Source: Escherichia coli (GTDB lineage Bacteria > Pseudomonadota > Gammaproteobacteria > Enterobacterales > Enterobacteriaceae). From it: a stretch of 64,000 bases of DNA. Position 1 is the first letter of the stretch. Each line of letters begins with the position of its first letter. The stretch lies in assembly GCF_003991155.1 (NCBI RefSeq), contig NZ_CP031293.1. The stretch is one strand, 5' to 3'. Below are positions 9,577 to 60,645 of this stretch, in pieces. The notes below the pieces were generated by a model that saw nothing but the letters and a program-made list of their open reading frames with translations, did no database searches and was not told the origin of the DNA. Made by a program: the position numbers and the translations under genes.

Positions 9577-9584
<8 letters not shown>

Positions 9585-10516: not shown

Positions 10517-10517
10517 G

Positions 10518-13386: not shown

Positions 13387-13390
13387 AAAT

Positions 13391-13410: not shown

Positions 13411-13416
13411 TGTTCT

Positions 13417-17564: not shown

Positions 17565-18782
17565 TTATTTCCTCTCATATTGAGCAAGACGTGATAGTAC
17601 GGCTTCATACTCAGGCATGTTCGATGCGCCTTCCCGCTCGACCGCCAGAGAAGCAAACGCAGAGGCAAATTTTGCTGCACTGAGCAACGGCTGGCCCTGC
17701 GCAATCGCCGCAGCAAACGCACCGTTAAACGCATCCCCCGCACCGGTGGTGTCAATACTTACTGCTTTTAACGCTGGAATATGGGTAAATTGTTCACCGT
17801 CATAAATCAGCGCCCCTTGAGAACCCATCGTAATAATGATGTTTTTTGCCCCCAGGGATTTTATGGTTTGCGCCGCTTCTTTCGCACTCTCGATATCATT
17901 AATCTCGACACCGGACATCAGCGACGCTTCTGTTTCATTCGGTGTCAGATAATCAACATATTGCAGGCATTCTTTTGCCTGGTCAGAATAAGGGGCTGGG
18001 TTAAGGATAGTTTTCACGCCCGACCGATGTGCCATATTTAGTGCCAGCGTGGTTGCTTCAAAGTTATTTTCCAACTGTGTCAAAAATATTTTGGCGTCCG
18101 TCAACTCACCCGCAATACTGGCAACTTCCGCTTCAGTGATATATTGATTGGCGCCAGAATAAATCGCGATCTTGTTTTCACCAGCAGGCTCCGAAACATA
18201 TATTATGGCGCTTCCTGTTTTATGCTCTTCGTCCTGGTAGAGGGTAAAGCTGCGGATATCGGATGAAGAGAGATGATCATGCGCCATCTGGCCGAAATGG
18301 TCGTTGCCAACTTTGCCGACGAAGTGTACCTGGACGGGACATTTGCTGGCTGCCATCGCCTGGTTTGCGCCCTTGCCGCCAGGTCCAATGATGGTATTGC
18401 TGGCAAGAATTGATTCGCCGCTTTTAGGGAAGCGATCAACTTTGGCAATAATATCGACATTAAAAGATCCTAATATACAAACTTTGCTTATCATTATTTT
18501 CCCTTTTTTGTTTGTCATCGAGTTTTTTCGCCAGTTGACCTGATTGAGGAACTTTTCAATAGAGGTACCAACGTTATTAACGGGCTGAGAATGGAAAATC
18601 CGACGCAATATTATTGCTCCGCCGTGACAACGCTCAACACCCCCTTGCTCCGCTAATAAATTTAAATCATTACGGATCGTTTCTTTACTGACAGAGAATA
18701 AGATGGCGAGTTGATTAACCGTAGCCCGCTCATGTTTATTCAAATATGCCAATATTTGACGTTGTCTTTCTTTCCCAAACAT
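17565..18782 (-). CDS. DeoR-type HTH domain fused to a ribokinase/PfkB-family carbohydrate kinase domain
   Basis: 405-aa ORF; N-terminal about 60 aa ERQRQILAYLNKHERATVNQLAILFSVSKETIRNDLNLLAEQGGVERCHGGAI is a DeoR-family HTH; C-terminal about 305 aa carries PfkB motifs GPGGKGANQA and DTTGAGDAFNGAF; GAGGTG RBS; stop 1 nt before the permease ATG. Confidence 0.8.
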   Translation of the reverse strand: MFGKERQRQILAYLNKHERATVNQLAILFSVSKETIRNDLNLLAEQGGVERCHGGAIILRRIFHSQPVNNVGTSIEKFLNQVNWRKNSMTNKKGKIMISKVCILGSFNVDIIAKVDRFPKSGESILASNTIIGPGGKGANQAMAASKCPVQVHFVGKVGNDHFGQMAHDHLSSSDIRSFTLYQDEEHKTGSAIIYVSEPAGENKIAIYSGANQYITEAEVASIAGELTDAKIFLTQLENNFEATTLALNMAHRSGVKTILNPAPYSDQAKECLQYVDYLTPNETEASLMSGVEINDIESAKEAAQTIKSLGAKNIIITMGSQGALIYDGEQFTHIPALKAVSIDTTGAGDAFNGAFAAAIAQGQPLLSAAKFASAFASLAVEREGASNMPEYEAVLSRLAQYERK

Positions 18783-18987
18783 GATTTCACCTCACGTAAC
18801 ATTTATATCTTTTGTAATTTTCTGATTCCATGAATCCTTTCACACTACCATCACGAAAACAAAAACAAACGGGAATTTTTGGAGGAAAGGTTTTTTTATT
18901 CAATGGGATAGTGAGAGGGGAATGTTGTTTTGAAAAAACACTCCCGAAAAATGCGTGGGAAAGCGCTTTCAATCGTAAACGGAATGC

Positions 18988-30203: not shown

Positions 30204-30749
30204 TTAGGCTTTTTCAACCTGGCTGAAGTCCAGCTCTACCGGGGTCGCACGACCGAAGATAGAAACAGACACTTTCAGACGAGATTTCTCGTAATCCACT
30301 TCTTCAACAACACCGTTGAAGTCAGCGAACGGACCATCATTAACACGGACCATTTCACCCGGTTCAAACAGCGTTTTCGGACGCGGCTTATCACCAACCT
30401 GCTGCAGGCGGTTCATAATCGCATCGACTTCTTTATCGCTGATTGGTGCAGGACGATCGGAAGTACCGCCGATGAAGCCCATCACACGCGGTACGCTGCG
30501 CACCAGGTGCCAGCTCGCGTCGTTCATCACCATCTGAACGAGGACGTAGCCAGGGAAGAATTTACGTTCGCTTTTGCGACGCTGACCGCCACGGATTTCA
30601 ACCACTTCTTCGGTTGGTACCATGACTTCACCAAACAAATCTTCCATGTTGTGTAATTTGATATGCTCACGCAGCGACGTTGCTACGCGGCCTTCAAAAC
30701 CGGAAAACGCCTGAACGACGTACCAGCGCTTTTTAGGAGCTTCAGACAT
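30204..30749 (-). CDS. nusG: Transcription termination/antitermination factor NusG
   Basis: 181-aa [45 protein letters not shown]. Confidence 0.99.
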
Positions 30750-30750
30750 C

Positions 30751-31134
30751 TCAGAACCTCAGGCCAGTGATAAAGGATACCAGGCGAACCAGAATACCAT
30801 CCAGTCCCCACAGGATCAGTGACATTACTGCGGTAACCGCAGCCACAATCAGCGTGGTGTGCAATGTTTCCTGGCGAGTCGGCCAAATGACCTTACGGAC
30901 TTCGGTACGCGCTTCACGGGCAAAAGCAACGGTAGCTTTACCTTTTGTCGTTAACAGCGCGACACCACCCGCTGCAGCAATCAGAATTACTACGGCCAGC
31001 GCACGCAGCGGCAGCATAATGTCGCGATAAAGATAGTTGCCGACAATCGCCACCAGGAGCAATGCCACCACAACGACCCACTTCATCGCTTCCAGGCCGC
31101 GCCCGCTTCCTTGAGCTTCGGTATTCGCACTCAT
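30751..31134 (-). CDS. secE: Protein translocase subunit SecE
   Basis: 127-aa ORF with three TM segments, immediately upstream of nusG. Confidence 0.97.
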
Positions 31135-31303
31135 AAACCAACCTGTCAGAAGTTTTCTACAAACATTTTCACCCCGCGATCGCGAGGCAAACCAAATCGA
31201 AACGCGTATTAGCTTTTCGGATTATACGCCCTCAACAGAGCCTGTCTCAGCAATGATTATGACAAAGAAAATCACTGATGAGCCAGGTTCTGGTACGAAA
31301 GCG

Positions 31304-31330
31304 TGCAAAAAGGGCATCAAATGATGCCCT
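31304..31330 (-). terminator. tufB terminator
   Basis: AGGGCATCA-AA-TGATGCCCT hairpin followed by a T-run on the minus strand, about 35 nt after the tufB stop. Confidence 0.75.
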
Positions 31331-31363
31331 TTTAGTGCGCATTGCGTCAAATGTTATCGGCAA

Positions 31364-32584
<1,221 letters not shown>

Positions 32585-32662
32585 TCACCACATCAACCAG
32601 GCAACATGCCCGACTTGTTGAATGCAATAAACAGAAGGAAAAAACAGGGAGGAGAAAAGAAG

Positions 32663-32738
32663 TGGTGCTGATAGGCAGATTCGAACTGCCGACCTCACCC
32701 TTACCAAGGGTGCGCTCTACCAACTGAGCTATATCAGC
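32663..32738 (-). tRNA. thrT: tRNA-Thr (GGU)
   Basis: Minus-strand cloverleaf GCUGAUAUAGCUCAGUUGGUAGAGCGCACCCUUGGUAAGGGUGAGGUCGGCAGUUCGAAUCUGCCUAUCAGCACCA. Confidence 0.95.
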
Positions 32739-32744
32739 ACATCT

Positions 32745-32819
<75 letters not shown>

Positions 32820-32935
32820 ATCCTGGAACTCGGCTACCTGATTTTCATTCTGCACTGAATATCGAGAGAAGCTCTCTTTATTCGAGCCGGTAAGCGAACT
32901 TATCGTCTCGGGCTACGCCATCGCGTGGCCGAAAT

Positions 32936-33020
<85 letters not shown>

Positions 33021-33028
33021 GGACTTGA

Positions 33029-33104
<76 letters not shown>

Positions 33105-33118
33105 ATCAAGTAGCGCGC

Positions 33119-33147
33119 ATTCTATGGAGACATGCGAGTTCATGCAA
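33119..33147 (-). promoter_or_regulatory. thrU-tyrU-glyT-thrT-tufB operon promoter
   Basis: Minus strand TTGCAT-17 bp-TAGAAT followed by a GC-rich discriminator (GCGCGC), just upstream of thrU; AT-rich UP-like region further upstream. Confidence 0.75.
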
Positions 33148-33465
33148 CTAAAAAATTGCATAATTTGTTTTATTGGTCACATTTTATGCGACACGATGAA
33201 GAAACAGCCGAATGGAGGGCAGATTAGCACACTTTTTCAACATCATTGTGCTCAACAATGCGCTCCTGCTAAACCATAATTCTTTTTATCAGATGGAATA
33301 TCTGTCACATTGCTTTTCAACGATAGCTTCCTGGGAGAGATTTTTTCTTATTATTCCTCCCCATCTGGTGTTACCCTCCTGCCCATTAACCCATTCAACA
33401 GAACTGTGACGCGCCATGGCAAATATCGCTTTGCCGATAGAGCTATGACCGCCAGAAACATGCTT

Positions 33466-42814: not shown

Positions 42815-44603
42815 AGACTGTCTCATAATCTTTGTCGAACAGGTTGGCTATTTTACCACGAACTGTCAGGTGAGAGGTGACCGGATACGCAACCGCAAGA
42901 TCCCACAAGCTCACACCGCCCATTTTAACGGTTTGATAAGGATAAGATGAGTAATCCTTATCATAGCGAGTGCCTAAATACTGATAAGTAATACCCCAGT
43001 CGAAGTCATACAATTGCCAGTCGAGCTGGTATTTCACCTGCTGTTTAGCACGGCGTAACAACGGCACGTCGGTAATCGCATTACGCGCATCGACATAATC
43101 ATAACTCACAGTATGCGTCAGTGGTCCGGTATCAAAATTGGCGGTCGCCTCGACGCCCTTAATCCGCGCTTTCCCTTCGTTGTAATATTTCAGGGTGTGA
43201 TCATCATAATCGATCAAATCACTGACATCGTTACGATATCCGGAAATACGCCAGTTCACCCCAGCGGTTAAGCCTTCAAACGCGCCTTCCCACTGTTTGC
43301 TTTTCTCAGGATTCAGATTCGGATTTCCGTAGAAACCATACAGTTGTCCAAGATTAGGTGCCTTGTACGACGTGCCATAAGAAGCGATAAAACGATAGCC
43401 TTCGATGAATTCCCAACCGGCACTCGTTTGCCAGGTTCCATGACGACCAAACTGTGAGTTATCGTCGCTGCGGGCTGCGCCTTCAAACGTAAAATCGCCG
43501 ACTTGTTGCAATCCGGTCAGATAGATACCAGTGTTACGTTGATCATACCCATCCTCAACATAACCAGTACCCGGCGTCGTAGTCTGTTTCTGCCAGTCAA
43601 CGCCCGCACCAATATTACCGTGGCCAACGGTAACGTTATTTGCCCACTGGACGGTGTACTGCTTCATCTCATCCAGCGTCGCGGACGAATCATAACGACC
43701 ATAATGGGGATCGTAGTTGTAATCTTTGCTATGGCTATAGCTGGTAATGAGTTGTGATTTAATCAGTTCACCGTTATAGCGCAGCCCGGCGTCCCAACTT
43801 TGGCTATAGAGTTTACGGGTATCGAGCAACGGTGAGCCGGGAGAATAATACGCGTCATAATTGGTACGGTTATCATAGCCATAGCCGCGCACAAAGCCGC
43901 TCCAGGCATCAGTAAAGTTATGCTCCAGCGCGCCATAAAGCGTTTTACTTAAAAAACCATCGTTATCTGTCTGCGCTTGCGTTCCGGTATTCCCATAGGC
44001 AACAACATCATAACCATGAGTATGGGCATAATCGCCCAACAGCGTTACCCGTGTCTTATCCCCCAGTTGTTGCTGCGTGGAGACATCATAGTTCTGATAA
44101 CTATTGCTTCCCCACCCTGCTGAAATTTCCGTTCCGGGTTCATCGCGCGTCGTGATGATATTCACCACCCCGCCTATTGCATCGGAACCATAAACAGCGG
44201 AGCGCGGTCCACGGATATATTCAATACGCTGGACAAGCGCAATAGGGAACTGGCTAAGGTCGGCAGAACCACTCACTCCCGCCAGATTCAGGCGGACGCC
44301 ATCAATTAACACCAACACATGACTGGCATTTGTACCGCGAATAAAAATAGATGAGAGCTGACCTGAACCGCCGTTTTGGGTGATATCGACGCCCGGAAGA
44401 CGGCGCAGCACATCATTGACCGAGGTCGACTGCCAGCGGTCGATATCCTGACGCGTCACAACGGTGGTTGGTGCAAGCACAGTGCTGCGCGGCTGTTCAA
44501 AACGGTTAGCGGTAACGACGAGAGTATCCGGGCTGGTATCCTGTGCCCAAGCAGAAAAGGCTGTGACAGAACACGCCGTCAGCAGCGAAGCTTTTTTAAT
44601 CAT
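42759..44603 (-). CDS. btuB: TonB-dependent vitamin B12 outer-membrane transporter
   Basis: Start set at [35 protein letters not shown] (614 aa) within the track ORF; TonB box DTLVVTA; C-terminal ...TLSGSYTF; 3' end overlaps the murI start. Confidence 0.97.
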
Positions 44604-44845
44604 TGTAAAGCATCCACAATAGAAGAAGGATGCCGCAGGTTTCATCAATATTACGCGATGATGAGAACCAGATGCGACGTTAGCCGGCAGGTCTTCGGGC
44701 TTGGAGGGGTATCTAAGATACTAAGAGATGATGACTTCCCACCGGATGGCAGTGTCCGCATAACGCAATCATCGCACCTTTCCTTACCGCTGCGCGTCAG
44801 CTCCAGATTCGCACTGGATTCCCTATTAACTCACAGGACCGGCAA
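44604..44845 (-). promoter_or_regulatory. Cobalamin (AdoCbl) riboswitch in the btuB leader
   Basis: About 240-nt leader upstream of the btuB ATG containing the conserved B12-box-like core (GCCACUG region) on the minus strand. Confidence 0.8.
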
Positions 44846-44971
44846 GTGGATGCTACAGGTTGTAACAAGTTACTGTCCAGACGTAGCTCACAAATAGGAA
44901 TTCATCAAGATCTGGACATCTGATGAGCAATCCCTACAATCGCCGCGTACTTTAATTTTTCAGGATACATC

Positions 44972-46072
44972 ATGACCCCCGAACACCTTCCAACAGAACA
45001 GTATGAAGCGCAGTTAGCCGAAAAAGTGGTACGTTTGCAAAGTATGATGGCACCGTTTTCTGACCTGGTTCCGGAAGTGTTTCGCTCGCCGGTCAGTCAT
45101 TACCGGATGCGTGCGGAGTTCCGCATCTGGCACGATGGCGATGACCTGTATCACATCATTTTCGATCAACAAACCAAAAGCCGCATCCGCGTGGATAGCT
45201 TCCCCGCCGCCAGTGAACTTATCAACCAGTTGATGACGGCGATGATTGCGGGTGTGCGTAATAATCCCGTTCTGCGCCACAAGTTGTTCCAGATTGATTA
45301 CCTCACCACGCTGAGTAATCAGGCGGTGGTTTCCCTGCTGTACCATAAGAAGCTGGATGATGAGTGGCGTCAGGAAGCGGAAGCCCTGCGCGATGCACTG
45401 CGAGCGCAGAATCTGAATGTGCATCTGATTGGTCGGGCAACGAAAACCAAAATCGAGCTGGATCAAGATTACATCGATGAACGTCTGCCGGTCGCAGGGA
45501 AAGAGATGATCTACCGTCAGGTAGAAAACAGCTTTACCCAGCCGAACGCGGCGATGAATATTCAGATGCTGGAATGGGCGCTGGACGTAACCAAAGGCTC
45601 AAAAGGCGATTTACTGGAGCTGTACTGCGGCAACGGTAACTTTTCATTAGCACTGGCGCGCAATTTTGATCGGGTATTAGCCACCGAAATCGCTAAGCCG
45701 TCGGTCGCTGCCGCGCAATACAACATTGCCGCTAACCATATTGATAACGTACAAATTATTCGTATGGCGGCAGAAGAATTTACTCAGGCGATGAATGGCG
45801 TACGCGAGTTTAACCGCCTGCAAGGGATCGATTTAAAGAGTTATCAGTGCGAAACCATTTTTGTCGACCCACCACGCAGCGGTCTGGACGGTGAAACCGA
45901 GAAAATGGTGCAGGCGTATCCACGTATTCTGTATATCTCCTGCAATCCGGAAACGTTATGCAAGAATCTGGAAACATTAAGTCAGACGCACAAGGTCGAA
46001 CGTCTGGCTCTGTTTGATCAGTTCCCCTACACGCACCATATGGAGTGCGGCGTATTACTGACCGCGAAGTAA
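44972..46072 (+). CDS. trmA: tRNA (uracil54-C5)-methyltransferase
   Basis: 366-aa [32 protein letters not shown]. Confidence 0.96.
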
Positions 46073-46111
46073 AACCCATGCCGGATGCATCAGCATCCGG
46101 CATGATACCGA

Positions 46112-46471
46112 TTACTCAGCAACTTCCTGCTTACGGTTACGCATCTTCGCGCCAATCCAGAACACCATAATGACGGACAGTACTGCCGGGAAGAAGTTAG
46201 AGCCGATATCCGGATATTCCGCACGAACTACCGTGCTGTACAGCAGTACGCCGAGAATAAAACAGGCAGCTGCCAGACCCGGCAAGCCTACCGGCATAGT
46301 GCGATTAAGATAACGTTGATGCAGGCAGTAAACCGTCAGCACCAGGGAAATAATCGGGAATACAGAAAATGGCACAATGGAGCTAAACAGCGCTGCGAAA
46401 GTACCATTAATCGATAAGCCAGCAACTAACGCCAGCAGCAGCGTACCTCTATCTTGATTTGCTTGTTTCAT
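46112..46471 (-). CDS. yijD: DUF1422 inner-membrane protein YijD
   Basis: 119-aa hydrophobic ORF directly downstream of fabR. Confidence 0.9.
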
Positions 46472-47118
46472 TACTCGTCCTTCACATTTCCCGGAATAAT
46501 TGCGGTTTTCTCTTGTTCACGGCGATACCAGTAATAAGCCCCTTTCGAAATCATTCGCAGTTGCAGTACCAGTCGCTCTTCTAATTGCCGACGTTGTTCG
46601 ACGCCGACGTCCAACGCCTCAGCACCCGCACTGAAGACAATTGTCACCATTGCTTCGGCTTGCGCTTCAGTAAACGCACGCGGCATATGGTTTTCGAGTT
46701 CCAGATAGTCCGCAAGTTCCGCAATGAAGTGCTGAATTTCACGCGCAACGGCGGCACGAAACGCAGCGGAGGTACCGGAGCGTTCCCGCAATAATAACCG
46801 GAAGGCGTTAGGATTATTACCGATGAACTCCATAAATGTGGAGACCGAGGTGCGGATCACACTCCCGCCTTTGGCGATACGCTGACGCGCCTGGCGCATG
46901 AGTTGGCGTAGCATTAAACCGCTCTCATCAACCATGGTCAGACCCAGTTCGTCTACGTCGCGGAAATGCCGATAAAAAGAGGTGGGAGCAATGCCCGCTT
47001 CACGCGCCACTTCACGCAAACTCAGGCTGGCGAAGCTGCGTTCAGCACTTAATTGGCTAAATGCGGCTTCCACCAGCGAACGGCGGGTTTTTTCTTTTTG
47101 TTGCGCTCTTACGCCCAT
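46471..47118 (-). CDS. fabR: TetR-family repressor of unsaturated fatty acid biosynthesis FabR
   Basis: Track ORF of 247 aa; start set at [20 protein letters not shown] (215 aa); start could be further upstream at MFILWYS. Confidence 0.9.
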
Positions 47119-47452
47119 CACGATGTCTGAATCCTTGCCAAAAGTACTGCTGGCACTATACCAGAGAATGAACATACTGGATTGCTCCAGTGTTGTGAAT
47201 GAACGGTAACGCAATAAAACATATTTACTGCAATTCTTTGGCCGGTTCTTTTACGTACAACGGAAACCTGCCGCTTAAACGGAGAGTATCGTCGATAAAA
47301 ATCCAATAAAACGTTCAGGTCAAAAGTAAGAAACAGACAAAGCAAAGGCCGCTCACGCTATAGCCAGATAAATGACGGGGATCAATTGGCTTACCCGCGA
47401 TAAAATGTTACCATTCTGTTGCTTTTATGTATAAGAACAGGTAAGCCCTACC

Positions 47453-48853
47453 ATGCCACATTCCTACGATTACGATGCCATAGTAATAGGTTCCGGCCCC
47501 GGCGGCGAAGGCGCTGCAATGGGCCTGGTTAAGCAAGGTGCGCGCGTCGCAGTTATCGAGCGTTATCAAAATGTTGGCGGCGGTTGCACCCACTGGGGCA
47601 CCATCCCGTCGAAAGCTCTCCGTCACGCCGTCAGCCGCATTATAGAATTTAATCAAAACCCACTATACAGCGACCATTCCCGACTGCTCCGCTCTTCTTT
47701 TGCCGATATCCTTAACCATGCCGATAACGTGATTAACCAACAAACGCGCATGCGTCAGGGATTTTACGAACGTAATCACTGTGAAATATTGCAGGGGAAC
47801 GCTCGCTTTGTTGACGAGCATACGTTGGCGCTGGATTGCCCGGACGGCAGCGTTGAAACACTAACCGCTGAAAAATTTGTTATTGCCTGCGGCTCTCGTC
47901 CATATCATCCAACAGATGTTGATTTCACCCATCCACGCATTTACGACAGCGACTCAATTCTTAGCATGCACCACGAACCGCGCCATGTACTTATCTATGG
48001 TGCTGGAGTGATCGGCTGTGAATATGCGTCGATCTTCCGCGGTATGGATGTAAAAGTGGATCTGATCAACACCCGCGATCGGCTGTTGGCGTTTCTCGAT
48101 CAAGAGATGTCAGATTCTCTCTCCTATCACTTCTGGAACAGTGGCGTAGTGATTCGTCACAACGAAGAGTACGAGAAGATCGAAGGCTGTGACGACGGTG
48201 TGATCATGCATCTGAAGTCGGGTAAAAAACTGAAAGCTGACTGCCTGCTCTATGCCAACGGTCGCACCGGTAATACTGATTCGCTGGCGTTACAGAACAT
48301 TGGGCTGGAAACTGACAGTCGCGGACAGCTGAAGGTCAACAGCATGTATCAGACCGCACAGCCGCACGTTTACGCGGTGGGCGACGTGATTGGTTATCCG
48401 AGCCTGGCGTCGGCAGCCTATGACCAGGGGCGCATTGCCGCGCAGGCGCTGGTGAAAGGTGAAGCCAACGCACATCTGATTGAAGATATCCCTACCGGCA
48501 TTTACACCATCCCGGAAATCAGCTCTGTGGGCAAAACCGAACAGCAGCTAACCGCGATGAAAGTGCCATATGAAGTGGGCCGCGCCCAGTTTAAACATCT
48601 GGCACGTGCACAAATCGTCGGCATGAACGTGGGCACGCTGAAAATTTTGTTCCATCGGGAAACAAAAGAGATTCTGGGTATTCACTGCTTTGGCGAGCGC
48701 GCTGCCGAAATTATTCATATCGGTCAGGCGATTATGGAACAGAAAGGTGGCGGCAATACTATTGAGTACTTCGTCAACACCACCTTTAACTACCCGACGA
48801 TGGCGGAAGCCTATCGGGTAGCTGCGCTAAATGGCTTAAACCGCCTGTTTTAA
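47453..48853 (+). CDS. sthA: Soluble pyridine nucleotide transhydrogenase
   Basis: 466-aa [32 protein letters not shown] with an FAD/NAD Rossmann motif. Confidence 0.97.
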
Positions 48854-49753
48854 CACTTTATCGAAATGGCCATCCATTCTTGCGCGGATGGCCTCTGCCA
48901 GCTGCTCATAGCGGCTGCGCAGCGGTGAGCCAGGACGATAAACCAGGCCAATAGTGCGGCGAGGTTCCGGCTTAATACACGGCAAATAAACAACCCCATC
49001 GCGTTTGCGCTCCGGCGGCACAGCCAGCGCAGGCAGTAAAGTGATTCCGCTACCTGCCGCCACCATGTTGCGCAGCGTCTCCAGGCTGGTCGCGCGGAAG
49101 TGTGTATCTTCATCCGCCCCGGCTTCAAAACAGAACCCCATTGCCTGATCGCGCAAACAGTGACCATCTTCCAGCATCAGCAGTTTTTCTCCTGCCAGAT
49201 CGGCCATCGGTACGCATTCGCGGTTCGCCCACGGGTGATCTTCATAGATAGCCAGCAACATTGGCTCATCAAACAACGGCACTTCAATGAATGCTTCGCT
49301 CTCTTTCACCAGCGCGAGGATCACGCAATCGAGCTTGCCGCTGTCCAGTTGCGCCAGTAACTGGTGGGTCTGTGCTTCATGCAGATACATTTCCAGCTTT
49401 GGAAAGGTCTGGTGCAGCATCGGGATAATATGCGGTAGCAGGTACGGTCCAACCGTGGGAATCAAACCAATATGCAGCGGTCCGGACATCGTCTCGCCCT
49501 GCTGGCTTGCCATCTCTTTAAGGACTTTCACCTCACGCAGCACGGTACGCGCCTGATCCACCAGCAGCATTCCCGCCTGGGTGAATAACACTTTACGGCT
49601 GGTCCGCTCCAGCAACATCACGCCCAGCTCATCTTCCAGCTTACGAATTTGCCCGCTAAGCGTCGGCTGGCTAACGTGGCAGGAGTCTGCCGCACGCCGA
49701 AAATGGCGGTGTTCAGCCAATGCCACCAGGTACTCAAGATCACGAATATTCAT
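48836..49753 (-). CDS. oxyR: LysR-family oxidative-stress regulator OxyR
   Basis: Start set at [44 protein letters not shown] (305 aa); convergent 18-bp overlap with sthA. Confidence 0.97.
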
Positions 49754-49848
49754 TATCCATCCTCCATTGCCACGATAGTTCGCGGCGATAGGTAGCATAG
49801 CAACGAACGATTATCCCTATCAAGCATTCTGACTGATAATTGCTCACA

Positions 49849-49958
49849 GAAACGGAGCGGCACCTCTTTTAACCCTTGAAGTCACTGCCCGTTTCGAGAG
49901 TTTCTCAACTCGAATAACTAAAGCCAACGTGAACTTTTGCGGATCTCCAGGATCCGCT
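49849..49958 (+). ncRNA. oxyS: OxyS small regulatory RNA
   Basis: GAAACGGAGCGGCACCUCUUUUAACCCUUGAAGUCACUGCCCGUUUCGAGAGUUUCUCAACUCGAAUAACUAAAGCCAACGUGAACUUUUGCGGAUCUCCAGGAUCCGC plus a U-run; divergent from oxyR. Confidence 0.93.
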
Positions 49959-50004
49959 TTTTTTTATTCTACAGGCCCACAGCAAGAGAGCCTGATAGTA
50001 ACAG

Positions 50005-51288
50005 TTACTCAATCCGATCTTTGACAATAAAGAAGTAACACAGCGCCCCGGTGAACGTCACACAGGCCGCGATAACCAGCGCCAGATTAAACGAGTGCGT
50101 GGTATCCACTACCCAACCGGTTACGATCGGAGCAAAGGAAGCAAAAACAAAACTGCCAAAGTTTTGAATCCCGGCGATGGAAGCCACTTTTGTTTCTGAC
50201 ACCATCACCTGCACCAGTCCCCATGCAGATGTTCCCGCGAAATGCACGCAGAACAGCGCCATTGAGATAAACGCTACAGCCTGGGCTGGCGAGGAGGATT
50301 GCACGACCAGCAACGTGCCTAATGCCGACATCATCAAACCGCAGACAATAGCCGTTTTACGCGTCTTCGCCAGGTCGTAGCCTTTTTTCGCCAGCCGATC
50401 GACAACAATACCGTTAACCCACATCCCGACCGCCGCCGCGAGGAAAGGAATCGCCGCCACCCAACCGGTTTTCGCCAGACTGAAGCCTTGCTCGGCTTGT
50501 AAATAACCGGGTAACCACGCGATGTAGAGCCAACCGGTATAATTGACGCCAGAGAAACCTAAAATCATCCCCCAGGTTGTCCGATGCTTAAACAGCGCCA
50601 GCCACTCGCTAAATTGTAATTGTGGACGCGGTTTAACCGGCGCGGAGAGATAGGTCCGTTCTTCGTCGGTCAGGACAAACTGCGCCCGGTTGCGATACCA
50701 CGCGTACCAACAGATCCCAACCAGAATCCCCGCCACGCCGATGATGACGAACATTGCCCGCCAGCCCCATGCCAGCTGCATCAATACAAGAGCAGGAGGC
50801 GCAATAGCCTGACCGATAACGGTAGATGAGTTAAAAATCCCCAGCGCCGTGCCGCGTTCTTTTTGCGCATACCAGTCGGTGATCGACTTTACTCCCGCAG
50901 GCATAAATGGCGCTTCGCCAATACCCAGACCGATACGCATTAAAATAAAGTGGCTAAAAGAATTAACCATTCCTGTTAATGCCTGCATTAATGACCAGAA
51001 TATTAAGCCTGCGCCTAAAACTATTCGTGGGCCAAAGCGGTCTAGCAAAATACCGGAAGGGAGTTGTGAAAAACCATAAGACAGAGAAAATGCAGAAAGC
51101 AAAACGCCAAATTCTGTCGCCGATAATCCTAACTCGCCACGAATCGCTTCGCCTGCCACGCTCAATGACGAACGGTCGAGGAAATTAACGATCCCCGCCA
51201 TAAATAATAAAACCAGCGTTACTGTCTGAATACGACGAATCCGTTGCGGTTTATTACCCGCAACACTGGTTGACACATCAACGTCCAT
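50005..51288 (-). CDS. MFS transporter, anion:cation symporter type (sugar-acid permease-like)
   Basis: 427-aa hydrophobic ORF; N-terminal LFMAGIVNFLDRSSLSVAGEAI and 12-TM organisation typical of hexuronate/glucarate/galactonate permeases; no K-12 gene at this position. Confidence 0.8.
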   Translation of the reverse strand: MDVDVSTSVAGNKPQRIRRIQTVTLVLLFMAGIVNFLDRSSLSVAGEAIRGELGLSATEFGVLLSAFSLSYGFSQLPSGILLDRFGPRIVLGAGLIFWSLMQALTGMVNSFSHFILMRIGLGIGEAPFMPAGVKSITDWYAQKERGTALGIFNSSTVIGQAIAPPALVLMQLAWGWRAMFVIIGVAGILVGICWYAWYRNRAQFVLTDEERTYLSAPVKPRPQLQFSEWLALFKHRTTWGMILGFSGVNYTGWLYIAWLPGYLQAEQGFSLAKTGWVAAIPFLAAAVGMWVNGIVVDRLAKKGYDLAKTRKTAIVCGLMMSALGTLLVVQSSSPAQAVAFISMALFCVHFAGTSAWGLVQVMVSETKVASIAGIQNFGSFVFASFAPIVTGWVVDTTHSFNLALVIAACVTFTGALCYFFIVKDRIE

Positions 51289-51354
51289 TTTTAGCTCCTT
51301 GAGCGGAATTAATCGATTTGATGACTATTCAGAAAATAATTAAGCGAACTGTTA

Positions 51355-52569
51355 TTACCAGTTCCACAATGTGCCATCTTCCAGTCGTGCGACGGGGAGA
51401 TACGCCGGGTCATACGGATATTTCGCCGCCAGTTTCTCATCGAAAGAAATACCCAGCCCCGGTTCATCGCCTGGGTGCATATAACCTTCATCGAAGCGCC
51501 AGCTATGCGGGAAGACTTCAAGCATTTGTTCGGAATAGCCCATGTACTCCTGAACGCCAAAGTTTGGCACCCAGAGGTCAAAATGCAGCGCCGCCGCATG
51601 ACAAACAGGCGATAAATCTGAAGGACCATGCGAACCGGTACGTACCTGATAAAGCGATGCAAAATCGGCAATCCGTCGCATCCCGGTAATGCCGCCTGCA
51701 TGGGTAATCGTCGTGCGAATATAGTCAATCAGCTGCTCTTCGATTAACTGCTTGCAGTCCCAGATACTGTTAAACACTTCACCGACCGCAATCGGCGTCA
51801 CAGTATGCTGGCGAATCAGACGAAAACATTCCTGGTTCTCAGCAGGCGTCGGATCTTCCATCCAGAACAGGCGGTAATCCTCAATGCTCTTCCCAAAGCG
51901 CGCCGCTTCGATAGGAGTCAGGCGATGGTGCATGTCATGCAACAGATGTTCGTTAAAACCGAACTTATTACGCACCGCTTCAAATAACTTCGGTGTAAAA
52001 TCGAGATACTTTTCTGAAGACCACAACTGCTCTTCCGGCCACAGGCCTTTGGTTGCCGGTTCATACGCCAGTCCTTTGCCCTTCGCCAGGCCATAAGTGG
52101 TTTGCATACCCGGTACACCGCACTGCACACGAATCGCCTTAAAGCCCATCTGCTGGTGCTTTGCATAGTCTTCAAGGACTTCATCAATCGTGCGCCCGGT
52201 GGTGTGGCAATAAACCATCACGCCTTCACGAGAAGCACCACCAAGCAGTTGATACAATGGCATATTTGCCGCTTTGGCTTTGATATCCCACAACGCCATA
52301 TCAATGGCAGAAATGGCCGACATCGTGACGGGGCCACGTCGCCAGTAAGCACCTTTATAAAAGAATTGCCAGATATCTTCGATACGGCTGGCATCGCGGC
52401 CAATTAATTGTGGACAAAGATGATCTTTCAGATAAGAAGCGACCGACAATTCGCGACCATTTAATGTGGCATCTCCCAATCCACAAAGTCCGCTTGCAGT
52501 GGTTATTTTAAGCGTAACGAAATTACGTCCTGGGCAAGTAACAAAAACATCTGCAGCAATAATTTTCAT
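51355..52569 (-). CDS. Enolase-superfamily dehydratase, RspA/D-mannonate dehydratase (ManD) subgroup-like
   Basis: Start set at [24 protein letters not shown] (404 aa) after an AGGAGATTGCAATA RBS within the 424-aa track ORF; strongly RspA-like along its length. Confidence 0.85.
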
Positions 52570-53054
52570 TATTGCAATCTCCTGTGTTGTAAATAGACGC
52601 TTCAAACTTAATTTTACGCCTACTACCATACAAGAGAGAAAGAGCGATTATTCAACCGTGATCACATTAAAAATAAAAATTTCCGCCGAGGAGAAAAAAC
52701 ACCCTCAAAAACCACCTGAATAATTAACCATCATCTTTAAAACAACACGTTAAATAATCACATAACAAACTCCATTAATCATTAAAAATGAGCACAGCAA
52801 TAGAAATTAATTATATTCAATTAATTAAAATATGTATTGATTGATGTATTGAAAATATGATTTTCATGGGGAGAGTGAAGGTAAAGAAGATGCAAGAATA
52901 AAAAGGAATATGACAAATAATAGTTCTGGTTGGGCGTTAAATTTAAGGTCACCAGAATGCTGACAAATTTCTGCCTGAGGCAGTCCGCCTACGTAGTGTC
53001 GCTACTTTATAGGCGTGGTAAGCTCCCCATTTTCAGGGGAGCAATATAAACCAA

Positions 53055-54428
53055 TTACTCTAACCGAGCCTGCGCAAAAGCAATCGCCTGCGCCACCTGC
53101 TGCGGTGAGACGCCGCCTTTTGCCGCACGCTTGTCGAGGCACGATTGTAGCGACAGAATCGGATAGACATCTTCGCCAATCACCTGGCTGAATTTCTGCA
53201 ACTCACTGAGCGGCAGATCTTCCAGCGGTTTGCCCTGACGAATGGCTTCCACCACCGCTTCACCCACAATATGGTGCGCCTCGCGGAACGGTACGCCTTT
53301 CGCCACCAGGTAATCCGCCAGTTCAGTGGCGTTGGCGTAACCCTGCTGAGCCGCTTCCTGGCAACGCGGACGTTTCACCTGAATGCCATCCAGCACCAGC
53401 GCCGCCATATGCAGGCAGTCCAGCCAGGTATCGAGCGCGTCGAACAGACCTTCTTTGTCTTCCTGCATATCTTTGTTGTAAGCCAGCGGCAAACCTTTCA
53501 GCGTCATCATCATGCCGGTTAACGCACCCTGCACCCGGCCGCATTTACCGCGAATCAGCTCCAGCGCATCCGGGTTTTTCTTCTGCGGCATTAATGATGA
53601 ACCGGAAGTCACACGGTCAGAAAGCTCCACAAACCCCGCTTCGCCGGTGTTAAAGAAAATCAGATCTTCAGCAAAACGCGACAGATGCACCATGCCGATA
53701 GCGGCAGCAGAAAGCAGTTCCAGCACGTGGTCACGGTCAGAAACGCTGTCGAGACTGTTACGGGTCGCTGAAGCAAAGCCCAGCCAGCCAGCTAACTGTT
53801 CACGGTCGATTTCATAAGCCGTTCCCGCCAGCGCGCCACAGCCTAACGGACTGACATCCAGACGCTTAAGCGCATCCTGCAAGCGGCTTTCATCACGCGC
53901 CAGCATCTCCACGTAAGCCAGGCACCAGTGCGCGAACGTCACCGGTTGAGCACGTTGCAGGTGGGTGTAACCTGGCATTACCGCGTCCTGATTGTTCTGC
54001 GCGGTCTCGACCAGAGCGGATTGTAACTGCCGGTTAGCCGTCAGCAACTCGCTAACGGTATCTTTGCACCACAGTTTCAGGTCAGTCGCTACCTGATCAT
54101 TACGGCTACGCCCGGTATGCAGCTTTTTGCCTAACTGACCCACTTTGTCGATCAGTTTGCTTTCCACCCAGCTATGGATATCTTCGGCGTCGCTTTCAAG
54201 GATTTGTTGTGGCCTGGCGCGAACATCTTCCAGCAGCACGTTCAGCGCCTCTTCCAGTTGCGCCTGCTCTTCTGCGGTTAACACGCCGACCGTTACCAGG
54301 GCTTTGGACCAGGCCACAGAGCCAACAATATCCTGCTCCGCCAGACGGTAATCAAAGCGCAGTGAGTCGTTGAATTGTTTGAACCGTTGATCTGCTGCCT
54401 GGGTAAAACGCCCGCCCCAAAGTGCCAT
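53055..54428 (-). CDS. argH: Argininosuccinate lyase
   Basis: 457-aa [40 protein letters not shown]. Confidence 0.98.
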
Positions 54429-54488
54429 AACTCTGTTTCCTTATTTTGAAATTCAATGCCGGAAAGCTGCGCCTCCGGCTAACAAAAC

Positions 54489-55265
54489 TTAAGCTAAAAT
54501 CCGCGTACCCATCGGCATACCGTTAAACAGTGCCGGAAGCTGTTCCGCATGACGCCAGGAGGCGATATCTACCGGACGGCCCAGCGTGCGCGCAGCATCC
54601 AGCGCCGCGTTCACTTTCACTATCATGCCGTCAGTAATAATGCCCTGCTCAATCAGTTGTTCTGCTTTCGCGGCGGTCATTTCGGCAATGCGTTGCCCTT
54701 TGCCGTCGAGAATGCCACTGACGTCGGAGAGCAAAATCAGATCCGCGCCCAGCGTTGCCGCCAGCGCCGTTGCCGCCTGATCGGCATTGACGTTCATCAG
54801 TTGCCCTTCGTCTGTTACGCCAATGGAGCTGACCACCGGCAGATAACCGTTCTCCAGCAAGGAGTTGATAAGCTTAGGCGAACCTGGCTGCGCCAGTCCA
54901 ACATGGCCTAACTCTTCATCAAGCTGGGTCACTTTGACGCTGTCGCCGTCACCGAGAAACAAACCTACGGCCGCAATCTGATGTTTCTTCGCCCATGCCA
55001 GCAGGGTTTTATTTGCCGTTCCCGCCAGTGCTCCGGTGATAATGTTTATCTGATCCGCTGGCGTCACCCGCAGGCCGTTTTTCTTTTTCACCGGCAGATT
55101 CAGCCCTTTCATCAGCTCATCCACCACGCAACCGCCGCCGTGCACAATCACCAGCGGACGCTGATGTGACACACGATAATTCACCAGTGCACTAAACAGA
55201 CGTTCCAGCGCCTCTTCACTATCCAGCAGTACGCCGCCCAGTTTGATAATTAATGGATTCATCAT
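54489..55265 (-). CDS. argB: Acetylglutamate kinase
   Basis: Start set at [26 protein letters not shown] (258 aa) within the track ORF. Confidence 0.97.
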
Positions 55266-55272
55266 TGCACCC

Positions 55273-56277
55273 TTAAATAAGAGACTGCGTTTCCGCATAG
55301 CCGAAACGAATATTGGCGCACTGTACCGCTTGTGCCGCCGCGCCTTTCAGTAAGTTGTCTTCGGTCGCCACAATAATCAGATGCTCGCCCTGAACGGCAA
55401 ACCCGATATCGCAAAATGGCAGCCCAACGACATTTTTCAGCGCCGGAACGCCTTTGTCATACAGCCGCACCAGCGGTTTATGGGCATACGCCTGCTGTAA
55501 CACTTGCGCGACTTGCGCCTGGGTCACACCCGATTTCAGGCGGCAGGTAATAGTTTCGAGAATGCCGCGCGGGAAATTGCCCAGATGTGGGGTGAAGATA
55601 ACGTCAGCACCGAGGTGTGTGGCGATCTCTGGTTGATGGCGATGGGTAAAGACGCCATACGGTTGCAGGCTAACTTCACAAAAACTATTTGAAATCGCTG
55701 CCTTACGTCCTGCACCGCTCACGCCGCTGGTAGCGTTGATTACCGGCCACTGATTGAGGTCAAGAATATCGGCATCAATCAACGGTTTCAGCGCCAGCTG
55801 TGCCGCCGTCGGATAACAGCCTGGCACGGCAATCAAGTTCGCTTCTTTTAATTTATTACCGCACCACTCCGCCAGACCGTAGGCTGCCTGTTCCAGCAGT
55901 TCCGGATACTGATGGGTAAAGCCGTAATATTTTTCATAGAAGGTGGCGTCGTTAACACGAAACGCGCCGGAAAGGTCGAACACCACGCAGCCGGCTTCAA
56001 GAAATTGCGGCGCTAAATCGTGGCTAACTTCATGGGCGGTGGCGAGAAACACCACGTCCACCCCTGGGCTAAACTCGCTGATATCCGACATCGGCTGCAA
56101 CGGCAGATCAACGATGCCTTTTAGCTGCGGATGCAAATCGGAGATTAACTTTCCCGCATCATTGCTTTGCGCTGAAACAGTCAAAGCGGTTATGTTCATA
56201 TGCGGATGGCGATTTACATAGGTCACTAGCTCTGCGCCAGCGTAGCCGCTGGCACCCACAATCAGCGTATTCAACAT
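55273..56277 (-). CDS. argC: N-acetyl-gamma-glutamyl-phosphate reductase
   Basis: 334-aa [41 protein letters not shown]. Confidence 0.98.
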
Positions 56278-56369
56278 CGGGGCTATTCACCTTCTTATGT
56301 CTGGTTGCCAGGTTAAACGTAAAACATTCACCTTACGGCTGGTGGGTTTTATTACGCTCAACGTTAGTG

Positions 56370-56410
56370 TATTTTTATTCATAAATACTGCATGAATATT
56401 GATACTATCA
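56370..56410. promoter_or_regulatory. ArgR operator (ARG boxes) in the divergent argCBH / argE control region
   Basis: TTATTCATAAATACTGCATGAATATTGATA contains tandem TGAAT/ATTCA half-sites between the divergent arg genes. Confidence 0.55.
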
Positions 56411-56430
56411 TGACCAGAGGTGTGTCAACA

Positions 56431-57582
56431 ATGAAAAACAAATTACCGCCATTTATCGAGATTTACCGTGCTCTGATTGCCACACCTTCAATAAGCGCCA
56501 CGGAAGAGGCACTCGATCAAAGCAATGCAGATTTAATCACTCTGCTGGCGGACTGGTTTAAAGATTTAGGCTTCAATGTGGAAGTGCAGCCTGTGCCAGG
56601 AACTCGCAACAAATTTAATATGCTGGCAAGTACCGGACAGGGGGCTGGCGGTTTGTTGCTGGCGGGGCATACCGATACGGTGCCATTTGATGACGGACGC
56701 TGGACGCGCGATCCGTTTACACTGACGGAGCATGACGGCAAGCTTTACGGCTTAGGCACCGCCGACATGAAAGGCTTTTTTGCGTTTATCCTTGATGCGC
56801 TACGCGATGTCGACGTCACGAAGCTTGCAAAACCGCTCTACATTCTGGCGACTGCCGATGAAGAAACCAGTATGGCCGGAGCGCGTTATTTTGCCGAAAC
56901 TACCGCCCTGCGCCCGGATTGCGCCATCATTGGCGAACCGACGTCACTACAACCGGTACGCGCACATAAAGGTCATATCTCTAACGCCATCCGTATTCAG
57001 GGCCAGTCGGGCCACTCCAGCGATCCGGCACGCGGAGTTAACGCTATCGAACTGATGCACGACGCCATCGGGCATATTTTGCAATTGCGCGATAAGCTGA
57101 AAGAACGTTATCACTACGAAGCGTTTACCGTGCCATACCCCACGCTCAACCTCGGGCATATTCACGGTGGCGACGCTTCTAACCGTATTTGTGCTTGCTG
57201 TGAGTTGCATATGGATATTCGTCCGCTGCCGGGCATGACACTCAATGAACTTAATGGCCTACTCAACGATGCGCTGGCTCCGGTGAGCGAACGCTGGCCG
57301 GGTCGTCTGACGGTCGACGAGCTGCATCCGCCGATCCCTGGCTATGAATGCCCGCCAAATCATCAACTGGTTGAAGTAGTTGAGAAATTGCTCGGAGCAA
57401 AGACCGAAGTGGTGAATTACTGTACCGAAGCGCCGTTTATTCAAACGTTATGCCCGACGCTGGTTCTGGGGCCTGGCTCAATTAATCAGGCTCATCAACC
57501 TGATGAATATCTGGAAACACGGTTTATCAAGCCCACCCGCGAACTGATAACCCAGGTAATTCACCATTTTTGCTGGCATTAA
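56431..57582 (+). CDS. argE: Acetylornithine deacetylase
   Basis: Start set at [23 protein letters not shown] (383 aa) within the track ORF. Confidence 0.97.
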
Positions 57583-57617
57583 AAAAGCAAATCAGGCTGA
57601 TGACAAAGCCATGCAAG

Positions 57618-57690
57618 CGCACGGACAGTCCCCTCGCCCCTTCGGGGAGAGGGTTAGGGTGAGGGGAAAACCGTGCCCATACTGACCCGT
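57618..57690. repeat. GC-rich imperfect palindromic intergenic repeat (Box C / REP-like)
   Basis: GCACGGACAGTCCCCTCGCCCCTTCGGGGAGAGGGTTAGGGTGAGGGGAAAACCGTGCC: nested inverted repeats (CACGG...CCGTG; CCCCTTCGGGG) just after the argE stop. Confidence 0.4.
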
Positions 57691-57993
57691 AAGCGAGTTT
57701 GTCAGCAATCTCAAATGATGCCCAAATGGTAACTACAACTCATAACTCTTTGGTGTTACTTGAGGCGATTTTTTAACATTTCCATAAGTTACGCTTATTT
57801 AAAGCGTCGTGAATTTAATGGCGTAAATTCCTGCTATTTATTCGTTTGCTGAAGCGATTTCGCAGCATTTGACGTCATCGCTTTTACGTGGCTTTATAAA
57901 AGACGACGAAAAGCAAAGCCCGAGCATATTCGCGCCAATGCGACGTGAAGGATACAGGGCTATCAAACGATAAGATGGGGTGTCTGGGGTAAT

Positions 57994-60645
57994 ATGAACG
58001 AACAATATTCCGCATTGCGTAGTAATGTCAGTATGCTCGGCAAAGTGCTGGGAGAAACCATCAAGGATGCGTTGGGAGAACACATTCTTGAACGCGTAGA
58101 AACTATCCGTAAGTTGTCCAAATCTTCACGCGCTGGCAATGATGCTAACCGCCAGGAGTTGCTCACCACCTTACAAAATTTGTCGAACGACGAGCTGCTG
58201 CCCGTTGCGCGTGCGTTTAGTCAATTCCTGAACCTGGCCAACACCGCCGAGCAATACCACAGCATTTCGCCGAAAGGCGAAGCTGCCAGCAACCCGGAAG
58301 TGATCGCCCGCACCCTGCGTAAACTGAAAAACCAGCCGGAACTGAGCGAAGACACCATCAAAAAAGCAGTGGAATCGCTGTCGCTGGAACTGGTCCTCAC
58401 GGCTCACCCAACCGAAATTACCCGTCGTACACTGATCCACAAAATGGTGGAAGTGAACGCCTGTTTAAAACAGCTCGATAACAAAGATATCGCTGACTAC
58501 GAACACAACCAGCTGATGCGTCGCCTGCGCCAGTTGATCGCCCAGTCATGGCATACAGATGAAATCCGTAAGCTGCGTCCAAGCCCGGTAGATGAAGCCA
58601 AATGGGGCTTTGCCGTAGTAGAAAACAGCCTGTGGCAAGGCGTACCGAATTACTTGCGCGAACTGAACGAACAACTGGAAGAGAATCTCGGCTACAAACT
58701 GCCCGTCGAATTTGTTCCGGTCCGTTTTACCTCGTGGATGGGCGGTGACCGCGACGGCAACCCGAACGTCACTGCCGATATCACCCGCCACGTCCTGCTG
58801 CTCAGTCGCTGGAAAGCCACCGATCTGTTCCTGAAAGATATTCAGGTGCTGGTTTCTGAACTGTCGATGGTTGAAGCGACCCCTGAACTGCTGGCGCTGG
58901 TTGGTGAAGAGGGTGCCGCAGAACCGTATCGCTATCTGATGAAAAACCTGCGTTCTCGCCTGATGGCGACACAGGCATGGCTGGAAGCGCGCCTGAAAGG
59001 CGAAGAACTGCCAAAACCAGAAGGTCTGCTGACACAAAACGAAGAACTGTGGGAACCGCTCTACGCTTGCTACCAGTCCCTTCAGGCGTGTGGCATGGGT
59101 ATTATCGCCAATGGCGATCTGCTCGACACCCTGCGCCGCGTGAAATGTTTCGGTGTACCGCTGGTCCGTATTGATATCCGTCAGGAGAGCACCCGTCATA
59201 CCGAAGCGCTGGGCGAACTGACCCGCTACCTCGGTATCGGCGACTATGAAAGCTGGTCAGAGGCCGACAAACAGGCGTTCCTGATCCGCGAACTGAACTC
59301 CAAACGCCCTCTTCTGCCGCGTAACTGGCAACCGAGCGCCGAAACGCGCGAAGTGCTCGATACCTGCCAGGTAATTGCTGAAGCACCGCAAGGTTCCATT
59401 GCCGCCTACGTAATCTCGATGGCAAAAACGCCGTCCGACGTACTGGCTGTACACCTGCTGCTGAAAGAAGCGGGTATTGGATTTGCGATGCCGGTTGCAC
59501 CGCTGTTTGAAACCCTCGATGACCTGAACAACGCCAACGATGTCATGACCCAGCTGCTCAATATCGACTGGTATCGCGGCCTGATTCAGGGCAAACAGAT
59601 GGTGATGATTGGCTATTCCGACTCAGCAAAAGATGCGGGCGTGATGGCAGCTTCCTGGGCGCAATATCAGGCACAGGATGCATTAATCAAAACCTGCGAA
59701 AAAGCGGGTATTGAGCTGACGTTGTTCCACGGTCGCGGCGGTTCCATTGGTCGCGGCGGCGCACCTGCTCATGCGGCGCTGCTGTCACAACCGCCAGGAA
59801 GCCTGAAAGGTGGCCTGCGCGTGACTGAACAGGGCGAGATGATCCGCTTTAAATATGGTCTGCCAGAAATCACCGTCAGCAGCCTGTCGCTGTACACCGG
59901 GGCGATTCTGGAAGCCAACCTGCTGCCACCGCCTGAGCCGAAAGAGAGCTGGCGTCGCATTATGGATGAACTGTCAGTCATCTCCTGCGATCTCTACCGT
60001 GGCTACGTACGTGAAAACAAAGATTTTGTGCCTTACTTCCGCTCCGCTACGCCGGAACAGGAACTGGGCAAACTGCCGTTGGGTTCACGTCCGGCGAAAC
60101 GTCGCCCAACCGGCGGCGTCGAGTCACTGCGCGCCATTCCGTGGATTTTTGCCTGGACACAAAACCGCCTGATGCTCCCCGCCTGGCTGGGTGCAGGTAC
60201 GGCGCTGCAAAAAGTGGTCGAAGATGGCAAACAGAGCGAGCTGGAAGCCATGTGCCGCGATTGGCCATTCTTCTCGACGCGTCTCGGCATGCTGGAGATG
60301 GTCTTCGCCAAAGCAGACCTGTGGCTGGCGGAATACTATGACCAACGCCTGGTCGACAAAGCACTGTGGCCGTTAGGTAAAGAGTTACGCAATCTGCAAG
60401 AAGAAGACATCAAAGTAGTGCTGGCGATTGCCAACGATTCTCACCTGATGGCCGATCTGCCGTGGATTGCAGAGTCTATTCAGCTACGGAATATTTACAC
60501 CGACCCGCTGAACGTATTGCAGGCCGAGTTGCTGCACCGCTCCCGCCAGGCAGAAAAAGAAGGCCAGGAACCGGATCCTCGCGTCGAGCAGGCGTTAATG
60601 GTCACTATTGCCGGGATTGCGGCAGGTATGCGTAATACCGGCTAA
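57994..60645 (+). CDS. ppc: Phosphoenolpyruvate carboxylase
   Basis: 883-aa [46 protein letters not shown]...; C-terminal ...MRNTG. Confidence 0.99.

Follow-up and report, generated by a model that had tools for sequence, protein, structure and literature searches.

A probable rspA-type promoter with an AT-rich extension at the junction of argH and an accessory manD-MFS operon in Escherichia coli

Introduction

The rspA promoter of Escherichia coli K-12 is the closest described relative of the regulatory region analysed here. Its transcription starts 30 nt before the ATG and is repressed by RspR (YdfH), which gives a 31-bp footprint on K-12 rspA and whose palindromic box, ATACnnGTAT, reads ATACTTGTAT (Shimada et al. 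2021, PMC8249747). Two further systems serve as points of reference. The first is the set of promoters silenced by H-NS and StpA in strain CFT073, for which occupancy values are available from ChIP-seq; in the supplementary data of that study, strongly bound genes reach 0.4-0.6 on the H-NS occupancy scale and rspA is explicitly given as H-NS-unbound, with an IP/input ratio of 1.4 (Hustmyer et al. 2022, PMC9765446). The second is the REP/BIME family, REPs being taken as imperfect palindromes of about 35 nt with the consensus GCC[G/T]GATG...CTTATC[C/A]GGCCTAC. The malE-malF spacer was used as the REP reference, the K-12 RefSeq record having no REP annotation and the analysed DNA holding no other REPs.

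The region in question is the spacer between argH and a D-mannonate dehydratase gene, manD. Literature searches combining mannonate dehydratase with argH and oxyR, or ManD with RspA and MFS, or using the CFT073 locus tags, found no dedicated study of this locus. I report here its composition, boundaries, homologies and conservation, and propose a reading of its parts.

Results

An accessory operon between oxyS and argH

The window, that is, the whole 64,000-nucleotide stretch of DNA that was analysed (contig NZ_CP031293.1 of assembly GCF_003991155.1), carries on its minus strand, in this order, argC, argB, argH, a 485-bp spacer, manD and an MFS transporter gene, followed by oxyS (plus strand) and oxyR. 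The core gene argH (argininosuccinate lyase; 53055-54428, minus strand) ends with a stop codon at 53055-53057 that forms one boundary of an accessory segment, 49968-53054, made up of the MFS transporter gene, manD and the spacer and delimited by comparison with K-12 and by the RefSeq annotation of an identical genome. The other boundary is the T-run of the terminator of oxyS, an sRNA gene convergent with the MFS gene (49849-49958, plus strand; Rfam RF00035, 139.5 bits). The product of manD (51355-52569, minus strand) is a 404-aa D-mannonate dehydratase of the enolase superfamily (NCBIfam NF043051 ManD, 731 bits; RefSeq annotation). The second gene of the operon (50005-51288, minus strand) is annotated as an MFS transporter of the D-galactonate transporter subfamily, its score of 275 bits against TIGR00893 lying under the family cut-off of 395. 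The start of manD is the ATG at 52569, which has the SD AGGAG at 52583-52579 and is the start given by RefSeq, and not the upstream ATG at 52629 that appears in the ORF list.

In K-12, only 54 bp, holding a canonical argH terminator, lie between the T-run of the oxyS terminator and the stop codon of argH; 49968-53054 stands in their place. The segment is therefore accessory and the whole spacer is part of it; conservation of the region as core sequence in K-12, which would have spoken against the preliminary description, does not apply, since operon and spacer are both absent there. The manD-MFS operon was found in about 1,850 of 5,426 complete E. coli genomes, the spacer in 1867 and the manD-argH junction in 1716. 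CFT073 has the same island (manD is c4920, the MFS gene c4921 and oxyR c4922), with a spacer, at 4,684,953-4,685,449 of NC_004431.1, 92% identical to that of the window, and E. whittamii has an island at the same site.

A longer, 12.4-kb version of the island is present in one fetched record (NZ_AP022049.1; piece 4018-13621). Between manD and argH it adds an FGGY kinase, an L-ribulose-5-P 3-epimerase, a sugar ABC transporter, a DeoR regulator and an araD-like gene, and it is probably also carried by 136 genomes with a spacer match of 60-80% identity. In this long version, manD is 98% identical to that of the window, and of the spacer only positions 1-350 (52570-52919) are shared, at 79% identity. 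Only the short island has the other 135 bp (52920-53054); that they might be the far end of the 12.4-kb island was considered and rejected, as no similarity was found. In strain LP5-1 (NZ_CP101866.1; piece 2281-4134), an IS1 takes the place of manD together with the 5' end of the MFS gene, and what remains of the spacer is only its 134-bp argH-proximal part.

At its downstream end, the operon stops 37 bp from the oxyS terminator, in convergent orientation (junction 49960-50010). On the operon strand, the hairpin at this junction is followed by AAAAGUU and has no U-tract, so that read-through from manD-MFS would be antisense to oxyS.

The spacer is the most AT-rich part of the window

The preliminary description had singled out 52570-53020 as strongly AT-rich, and the windowed GC profile bears this out. 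This stretch is 33.3% GC as against 51.7% for the whole window, only 0.25% of all 451-bp stretches in the 64 kb are as GC-poor, and the minimum of the entire window, 30.8%, falls at 52520-52970, the next lowest region being at 36.1%. The AT-rich run thus extends well over the 200 bp or more taken here to define an H-NS-type composition. The sequences quoted in that description were all located: an A/T-rich string at 52785-52834, a palindrome at 52971-52983 and a hairpin at 53022-53042. The next GC-poor stretches of the window are 18447-18897 (36%) and 12423-12873 (38%).

The spacer as a whole (52570-53054, 485 bp) is 34.0% GC and is enriched 3.4-fold in A-tracts and 2.1-fold in TpA steps over the window average. 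By composition it splits into a manD-side part of 350 bp (52570-52919; 29.4% GC) and an argH-side part of 135 bp (52920-53054; 45.9% GC). The annotated 50-kb neighbourhood of CFT073 has 20 intergenic regions that are 100 bp long or longer and range from 32 to 50% GC, and the spacer ranks second lowest against them; its GC content is therefore extreme for intergenic DNA, at the low end of the range, but not unique. CFT073 also has a two-gene insert between sthA and fabR (an M20 aminoacylase and a citrate symporter; fetched piece 30567-33421) whose upstream spacer is 32% GC, below the manD spacer; the strain of the window has no such insert.

AT-richness is confined to the non-coding part of an old segment

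AT-rich DNA in an accessory segment might be recently acquired foreign DNA, in which case H-NS would silence a xenogeneic promoter; the preliminary description had spoken of horizontal acquisition. Variable presence agrees with this, since K-12 and about two thirds of E. coli genomes do not have the segment, as do the binding of H-NS to the island genes in CFT073 and the preference of H-NS for lineage-specific genes that the CFT073 study reports (PMC9765446). The other marks of a horizontal island are not there. At 50-51%, the GC content of the two genes of the operon resembles that of the host. Identity to another E. coli lineage is 97.4-97.9% for the island and 96.7-98.5% for its flanks, and identity to E. 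whittamii, where the island occupies the same site, is 93.2-93.9% and 93.2-94.2%, respectively. The borders have no integrase, tRNA, direct repeats or mobility genes, and the island gave no phage matches and no genuine plasmid matches; two 'plasmid' matches proved to be records of 1.0 and 4.8 Mb and were read as mislabelled chromosomal sequence. In addition, the proximal promoter described below is a paralogue of the resident rspA promoter. Since the gene GC is native and divergence runs in step with the flanks, a recent foreign origin is not supported, and I regard it as unlikely. The segment is old and variably retained, and only its non-coding part is AT-rich.

H-NS and StpA occupy both genes of the operon in CFT073

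In Data set S1E of Hustmyer et al. (2022, PMC9765446), manD (c4920) and the MFS gene (c4921) are both bound by H-NS and by StpA. H-NS binding to the two genes is recorded in the wild type and in the delta-rfaH and delta-stpA strains and is absent in delta-hns, and StpA follows the same pattern across strains. The H-NS occupancy values are 0.102 for manD and 0.146 for the MFS gene, both being averages per gene for the 92%-identical allele and not values for the spacer. In the same source c4921 is placed in Class III with an RNAP value of 0.49, and argH and oxyR are not among the supplement rows listed (PMC9765446). The proposal of silencing by H-NS or a similar protein thus gains occupancy of both genes in a related allele, and parts with the xenogeneic origin to which it had been tied.

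A single nucleation site upstream of manD would not be expected to give more occupancy on the MFS gene than on manD, as is observed. A dip in GC content to 41-42% at 50900-51400, covering the manD-MFS junction and the first part of the MFS gene, may explain this difference. The same supplement lists as a motif match an ops-like sequence (GGCGGTAGCGTT) in CFT073 c4921, at 4,687,738-4,687,749 of the record (Hustmyer et al., PMC9765446).

The sequence next to manD is paralogous to the rspA promoter

The preliminary description had not remarked on the manD-proximal 110 bp, which sequence comparison identifies as a paralogous copy of the rspA promoter (predicted core promoter and leader, 52570-52680, minus strand). 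An exact 15-mer, CTTGTATGGTAGTAG, which in the manD promoter occupies 52634-52620 as the operator core, and a TGTGATC motif, here within TGTGATCAC at 52666-52658, are shared by this promoter with the rspA promoters of E. coli and E. whittamii and stand 33 bp apart in all of them. Their distances from the ATG are -64 and -97 for manD and -65 and -98 for E. coli rspA. The manD promoter thus has the arrangement by which the type was defined, a core TTGTATGGTAGT at a distance of 53-90 nt to the ATG, preceded by TGTGATC some 33 bp further up. By positional homology to rspA, the predicted -35 is TTGTAT (52633-52628), the predicted -10 TAAGTT (52610-52605) and the predicted TSS about 52599, all on the minus strand. 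Both hexamers are weak, each agreeing with the consensus at three of six positions, and a consensus sigma-70 scan found no site in the spacer at threshold; their assignment comes from the alignment with rspA.

The proximal 110 bp are nearly invariant across all alleles and E. whittamii, and the element belongs to a wider family. TTGTATGGTA occurs upstream of 79 of 80 ManD/RspA loci across the Enterobacterales, most of which have the full RspR box. The corresponding manD site reads TCTCTTGTAT and does not form the palindromic box ATACnnGTAT over the -35. In every manD promoter compared, the left arm is TCTC, positions -4, -3 and -2 having changed from ATA to TCT at places that are 91-99% conserved over 78 loci, and by PWM the manD site scores 17.6, where the family has a median of 34.2 and a minimum of 16.2. 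Because the left operator arm is changed at three conserved positions, control of manD by RspR has probably been weakened and may have been lost.

Half-site scans gave only poor matches for CRP and FNR in the spacer, the CRP match of TGTGATCAC being poor in its right half, and no direct link between CRP and rspAB was found in the literature. Scans for generic GntR, ExuR/UxuR, IHF and Fur half-sites found no matches in the spacer. Across the 78 Enterobacterales ManD/RspA loci, an invariant 16-nt element, ATACTTGTATGGTAGT, lies about 50-110 nt upstream of the start codons, and the ManD/RspA promoters of the Enterobacteriaceae also have a pair of T-rich motifs with GATC in them, TTTTGTGATC and TTTTTGATCA, separated by about 21 bp.

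An Escherichia-specific AT-rich tract contains a conserved block

Upstream of the rspA-type promoter lies a tract of 28% GC, dense in A-tracts and TpA steps (52681-52919), which I propose as a nucleation tract for H-NS/StpA. It is specific to Escherichia: a search upstream of ManD/RspA genes at 79 other loci found no homologue, and only E. whittamii matched. In other genera, the DNA upstream of ManD genes is occupied by genes such as ynfA, ynfB and speG and has a GC content of 51-54%. AA/TT dinucleotides show no helical periodicity in the spacer, which therefore offers no evidence for intrinsic curvature, and the high-affinity H-NS motif TCGATAAATT finds two matches with two mismatches each in the spacer, which is unremarkable relative to the rest of the window.

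This tract might also be a functionless spacer drifting towards AT, in which case only the 110 rspA-like bp would matter and H-NS binding would be incidental or nucleated within the genes. Such an account fits the fact that the tract is the most variable part of the spacer (79% identity with the large-island allele, 88% with E. whittamii) and its lack of homologues in other genera, as well as the higher H-NS signal on the MFS gene in the CFT073 values and the local GC dip there. It does not fit so well with a distal block of 37 bp, GGAGTTTGTTATGTGATTATTTAACGTGTTGTTTTAA (52737-52773, minus strand; from allele alignments), which has at most one mismatch in all E. coli alleles, the large-island allele and E. 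whittamii amid flanks only about 70% identical, nor with the length of the tract, which is about equal in all of them. A further argument against it is that rspA, which has no such extension, was not bound by H-NS in the same experiment, according to the supplement of that study (PMC9765446). On balance a functionless tract seems quite improbable, and the conserved block is more readily seen as a probable regulator binding site within a putative nucleation tract.

The argH flank holds a conserved hairpin and REP/BIME relics

Read in the sense of argH, the short-island-specific 135 bp (52920-53054) form four stem-loops and fold better than shuffled sequences (z -3.3; z -5.2 for the common allele). 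The first, GCUCCCC-UGAAAAU-GGGGAGC (53022-53042, minus strand), begins 12 nt after the argH stop codon, has a 7-bp stem (-15.1 kcal/mol, z -4.8), is invariant in E. coli alleles and is kept in E. whittamii. It had been suggested as the argH terminator. As a hairpin it is stable and conserved; however, it is followed by UUACCACG instead of a U-tract (by UUUG in E. whittamii) and is therefore not a canonical intrinsic terminator, and a terminator scan reported none in the spacer, this hairpin included.

The second stem-loop, CGCCUA...UAGGCG (52986-53015, minus strand; -12.8 kcal/mol, z -4.1), consists of the joined ends of two inverted REPs, a BIME relic, and the alleles retain a stem here through a shift in register and the change of a U-G pair to C-G. 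Next to it, the small palindrome of the preliminary description, CTGCCTGAGGCAG, is indeed present (52971-52983), and comparison of alleles identifies it as a REP relic. Where the window reads CTGCCTGAGGCAG, the common allele, found in about 1555 genomes, reads TGCCTGATGTGGCGTAAACGCCTTATCCGCCTAC, an intact REP; relative to it, 18 nt of the REP have been replaced by CTGCC, a net loss of 13 bp. CTGCC is the complement of the adjacent GGCAG, and the replacement would resemble a template-switch event. In E. whittamii, the site carries two complete inverted REPs, that is, a full BIME. Matches to the malE-malF REP amount to 36 of 39 positions for E. whittamii and 25 of 29 for the common allele, and the E. 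whittamii version occurs at no fewer than 40 sites in each E. coli genome; the matches listed coincide with no annotated feature. The relic of the window is itself single-copy and retains of the REP consensus only TCAGGCAG and the GCCTAC/GTAGGC ends. Since the consensus is matched only in the common allele and E. whittamii, the copy in the window is a relic and not a member of the REP family.

Finally, a weak stem-loop, UUCUGGU...ACCAGAA (52957-52924), with a U-rich tail (52923-52897) spans 52897-52957 on the minus strand (-7.4 kcal/mol, z -1.4). The terminator scan did not flag it; it is possibly a leaky terminator for read-through from argH.

This degree of folding, together with the strict conservation of the 37-bp block and the existence of short ORFs (36-43 aa, and tiny ATG-initiated ones), might be taken to mean that the AT-rich region hides a small protein or an sRNA, for example one on the plus strand towards argH or one derived from the argH 3'UTR. 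Yet the structure is accounted for by the REP/BIME relics and one hairpin, and the plus strand has no hairpin bearing a U-tail. An Rfam search of 44000-58000 at E<=1 returned no more than oxyS, the cobalamin riboswitch of btuB and a single match below its threshold, none of them in the spacer; the sub-threshold match, Ysr224 at 56848-56945, outside the spacer, scored 21.6 bits against a cut-off of 70 and was discarded. The ORFs listed for the spacer encode only 36-85 aa, are unsupported and have no convincing SD, and PGAP has annotated nothing in the spacer among the 30 records listed. A hidden gene is consequently highly improbable, and the region is better read as the regulatory and 3'-flanking DNA described above.

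Discussion

The spacer, the junction between argCBH and manD-MFS, is probably made of three layers: an rspA-type promoter, an AT-rich tract and the argH 3' flank. In the first layer, an rspA-type sigma-70 promoter would drive manD with a leader of about 30 nt, under weakened or lost repression by RspR. In the second, the 240-bp AT-rich tract would nucleate H-NS/StpA filaments, leaving the operon silent under laboratory conditions. In the third, the conserved hairpin, the decayed BIME and the weak U-tailed hairpin would replace the canonical argH terminator of K-12; this layer probably stabilises the 3' end of argH and attenuates read-through.

A more specific and tentative hypothesis, about which I remain doubtful, is that the manD promoter is an rspA paralogue that lost the left RspR arm and gained a nucleation tract, the 37-bp block being a counter-silencer site. 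After duplication, nucleoid silencing would thus have taken over control from a dedicated GntR repressor, and a counter-silencer acting at 52737-52773 would open the operon in response to the right sugar acid. If this rewiring is true, the locus would provide a tidy natural case of a duplicated promoter that swapped a specific repressor for nucleoid silencing.

Beyond annotation, the result matters little: the stretch of lowest GC in the window is explained as an ordinary regulatory spacer, and the two features spotted by eye turn out to be remnants of REPs and a hairpin that lacks a U-tract. It does tie an accessory operon of about one third of E. coli, CFT073 included, to the rspA/RspR family and to published H-NS/StpA ChIP data. 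The argH terminator of K-12 is also missing from strains with the island, and in these the operon runs towards oxyS with no canonical terminator of its own, which may matter for transcription antisense to oxyS.

The spacer is an ordinary, probably silenced accessory promoter, a composite of known kinds, and resembles each of its models only in part. Like the intrinsic terminator of argH in K-12, the hairpin of the window is GC-rich and has the same position relative to argH, but the K-12 terminator is canonical, with a 9-bp stem followed by UUUUUUAU where the window has UUACCACG, and the two sequences are unrelated. As with REP/BIMEs of the malE-malF type, the repeat remnants lie just downstream of a stop codon, and their allelic and E. 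whittamii versions match the REP consensus and are multi-copy; unlike those REPs, the window has relics only, one REP being reduced to GCTTACCACGCCTAC and the other, which has no core, remodelled into a palindrome with a 5-bp stem.

With the Class III H-NS/StpA-silenced promoters of CFT073, the operon shares AT-rich upstream DNA, accessory genes, H-NS and StpA occupancy of its genes and low RNAP (PMC9765446). It differs from strongly bound genes of that strain in its modest occupancy, 0.10-0.15 on the scale of the same data (PMC9765446), and from silenced lineage-specific genes in that its coding genes are not AT-rich and the island is unmarked as foreign.

The nearest model is rspA of K-12 (rspAB). 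Like it, manD has the core CTTGTATGGTAGT over a TTGTAT -35, with TGTGATC 33 bp upstream and the start codon 64-65 nt away, and the manD protein is 92% identical to the product downstream of the rspA promoter. The two promoters differ in that the left arm of the manD operator is TCTC, with three of four bases changed and a PWM score at the family minimum, and in the diverged sequence that links TGTGATC to the core. Where rspA has ynfA upstream, manD has the 240-bp AT-rich extension; its partner gene encodes an MFS transporter, in contrast to rspB for rspA; and in the CFT073 supplement the manD-MFS genes are bound by H-NS whereas rspA is not (PMC9765446).
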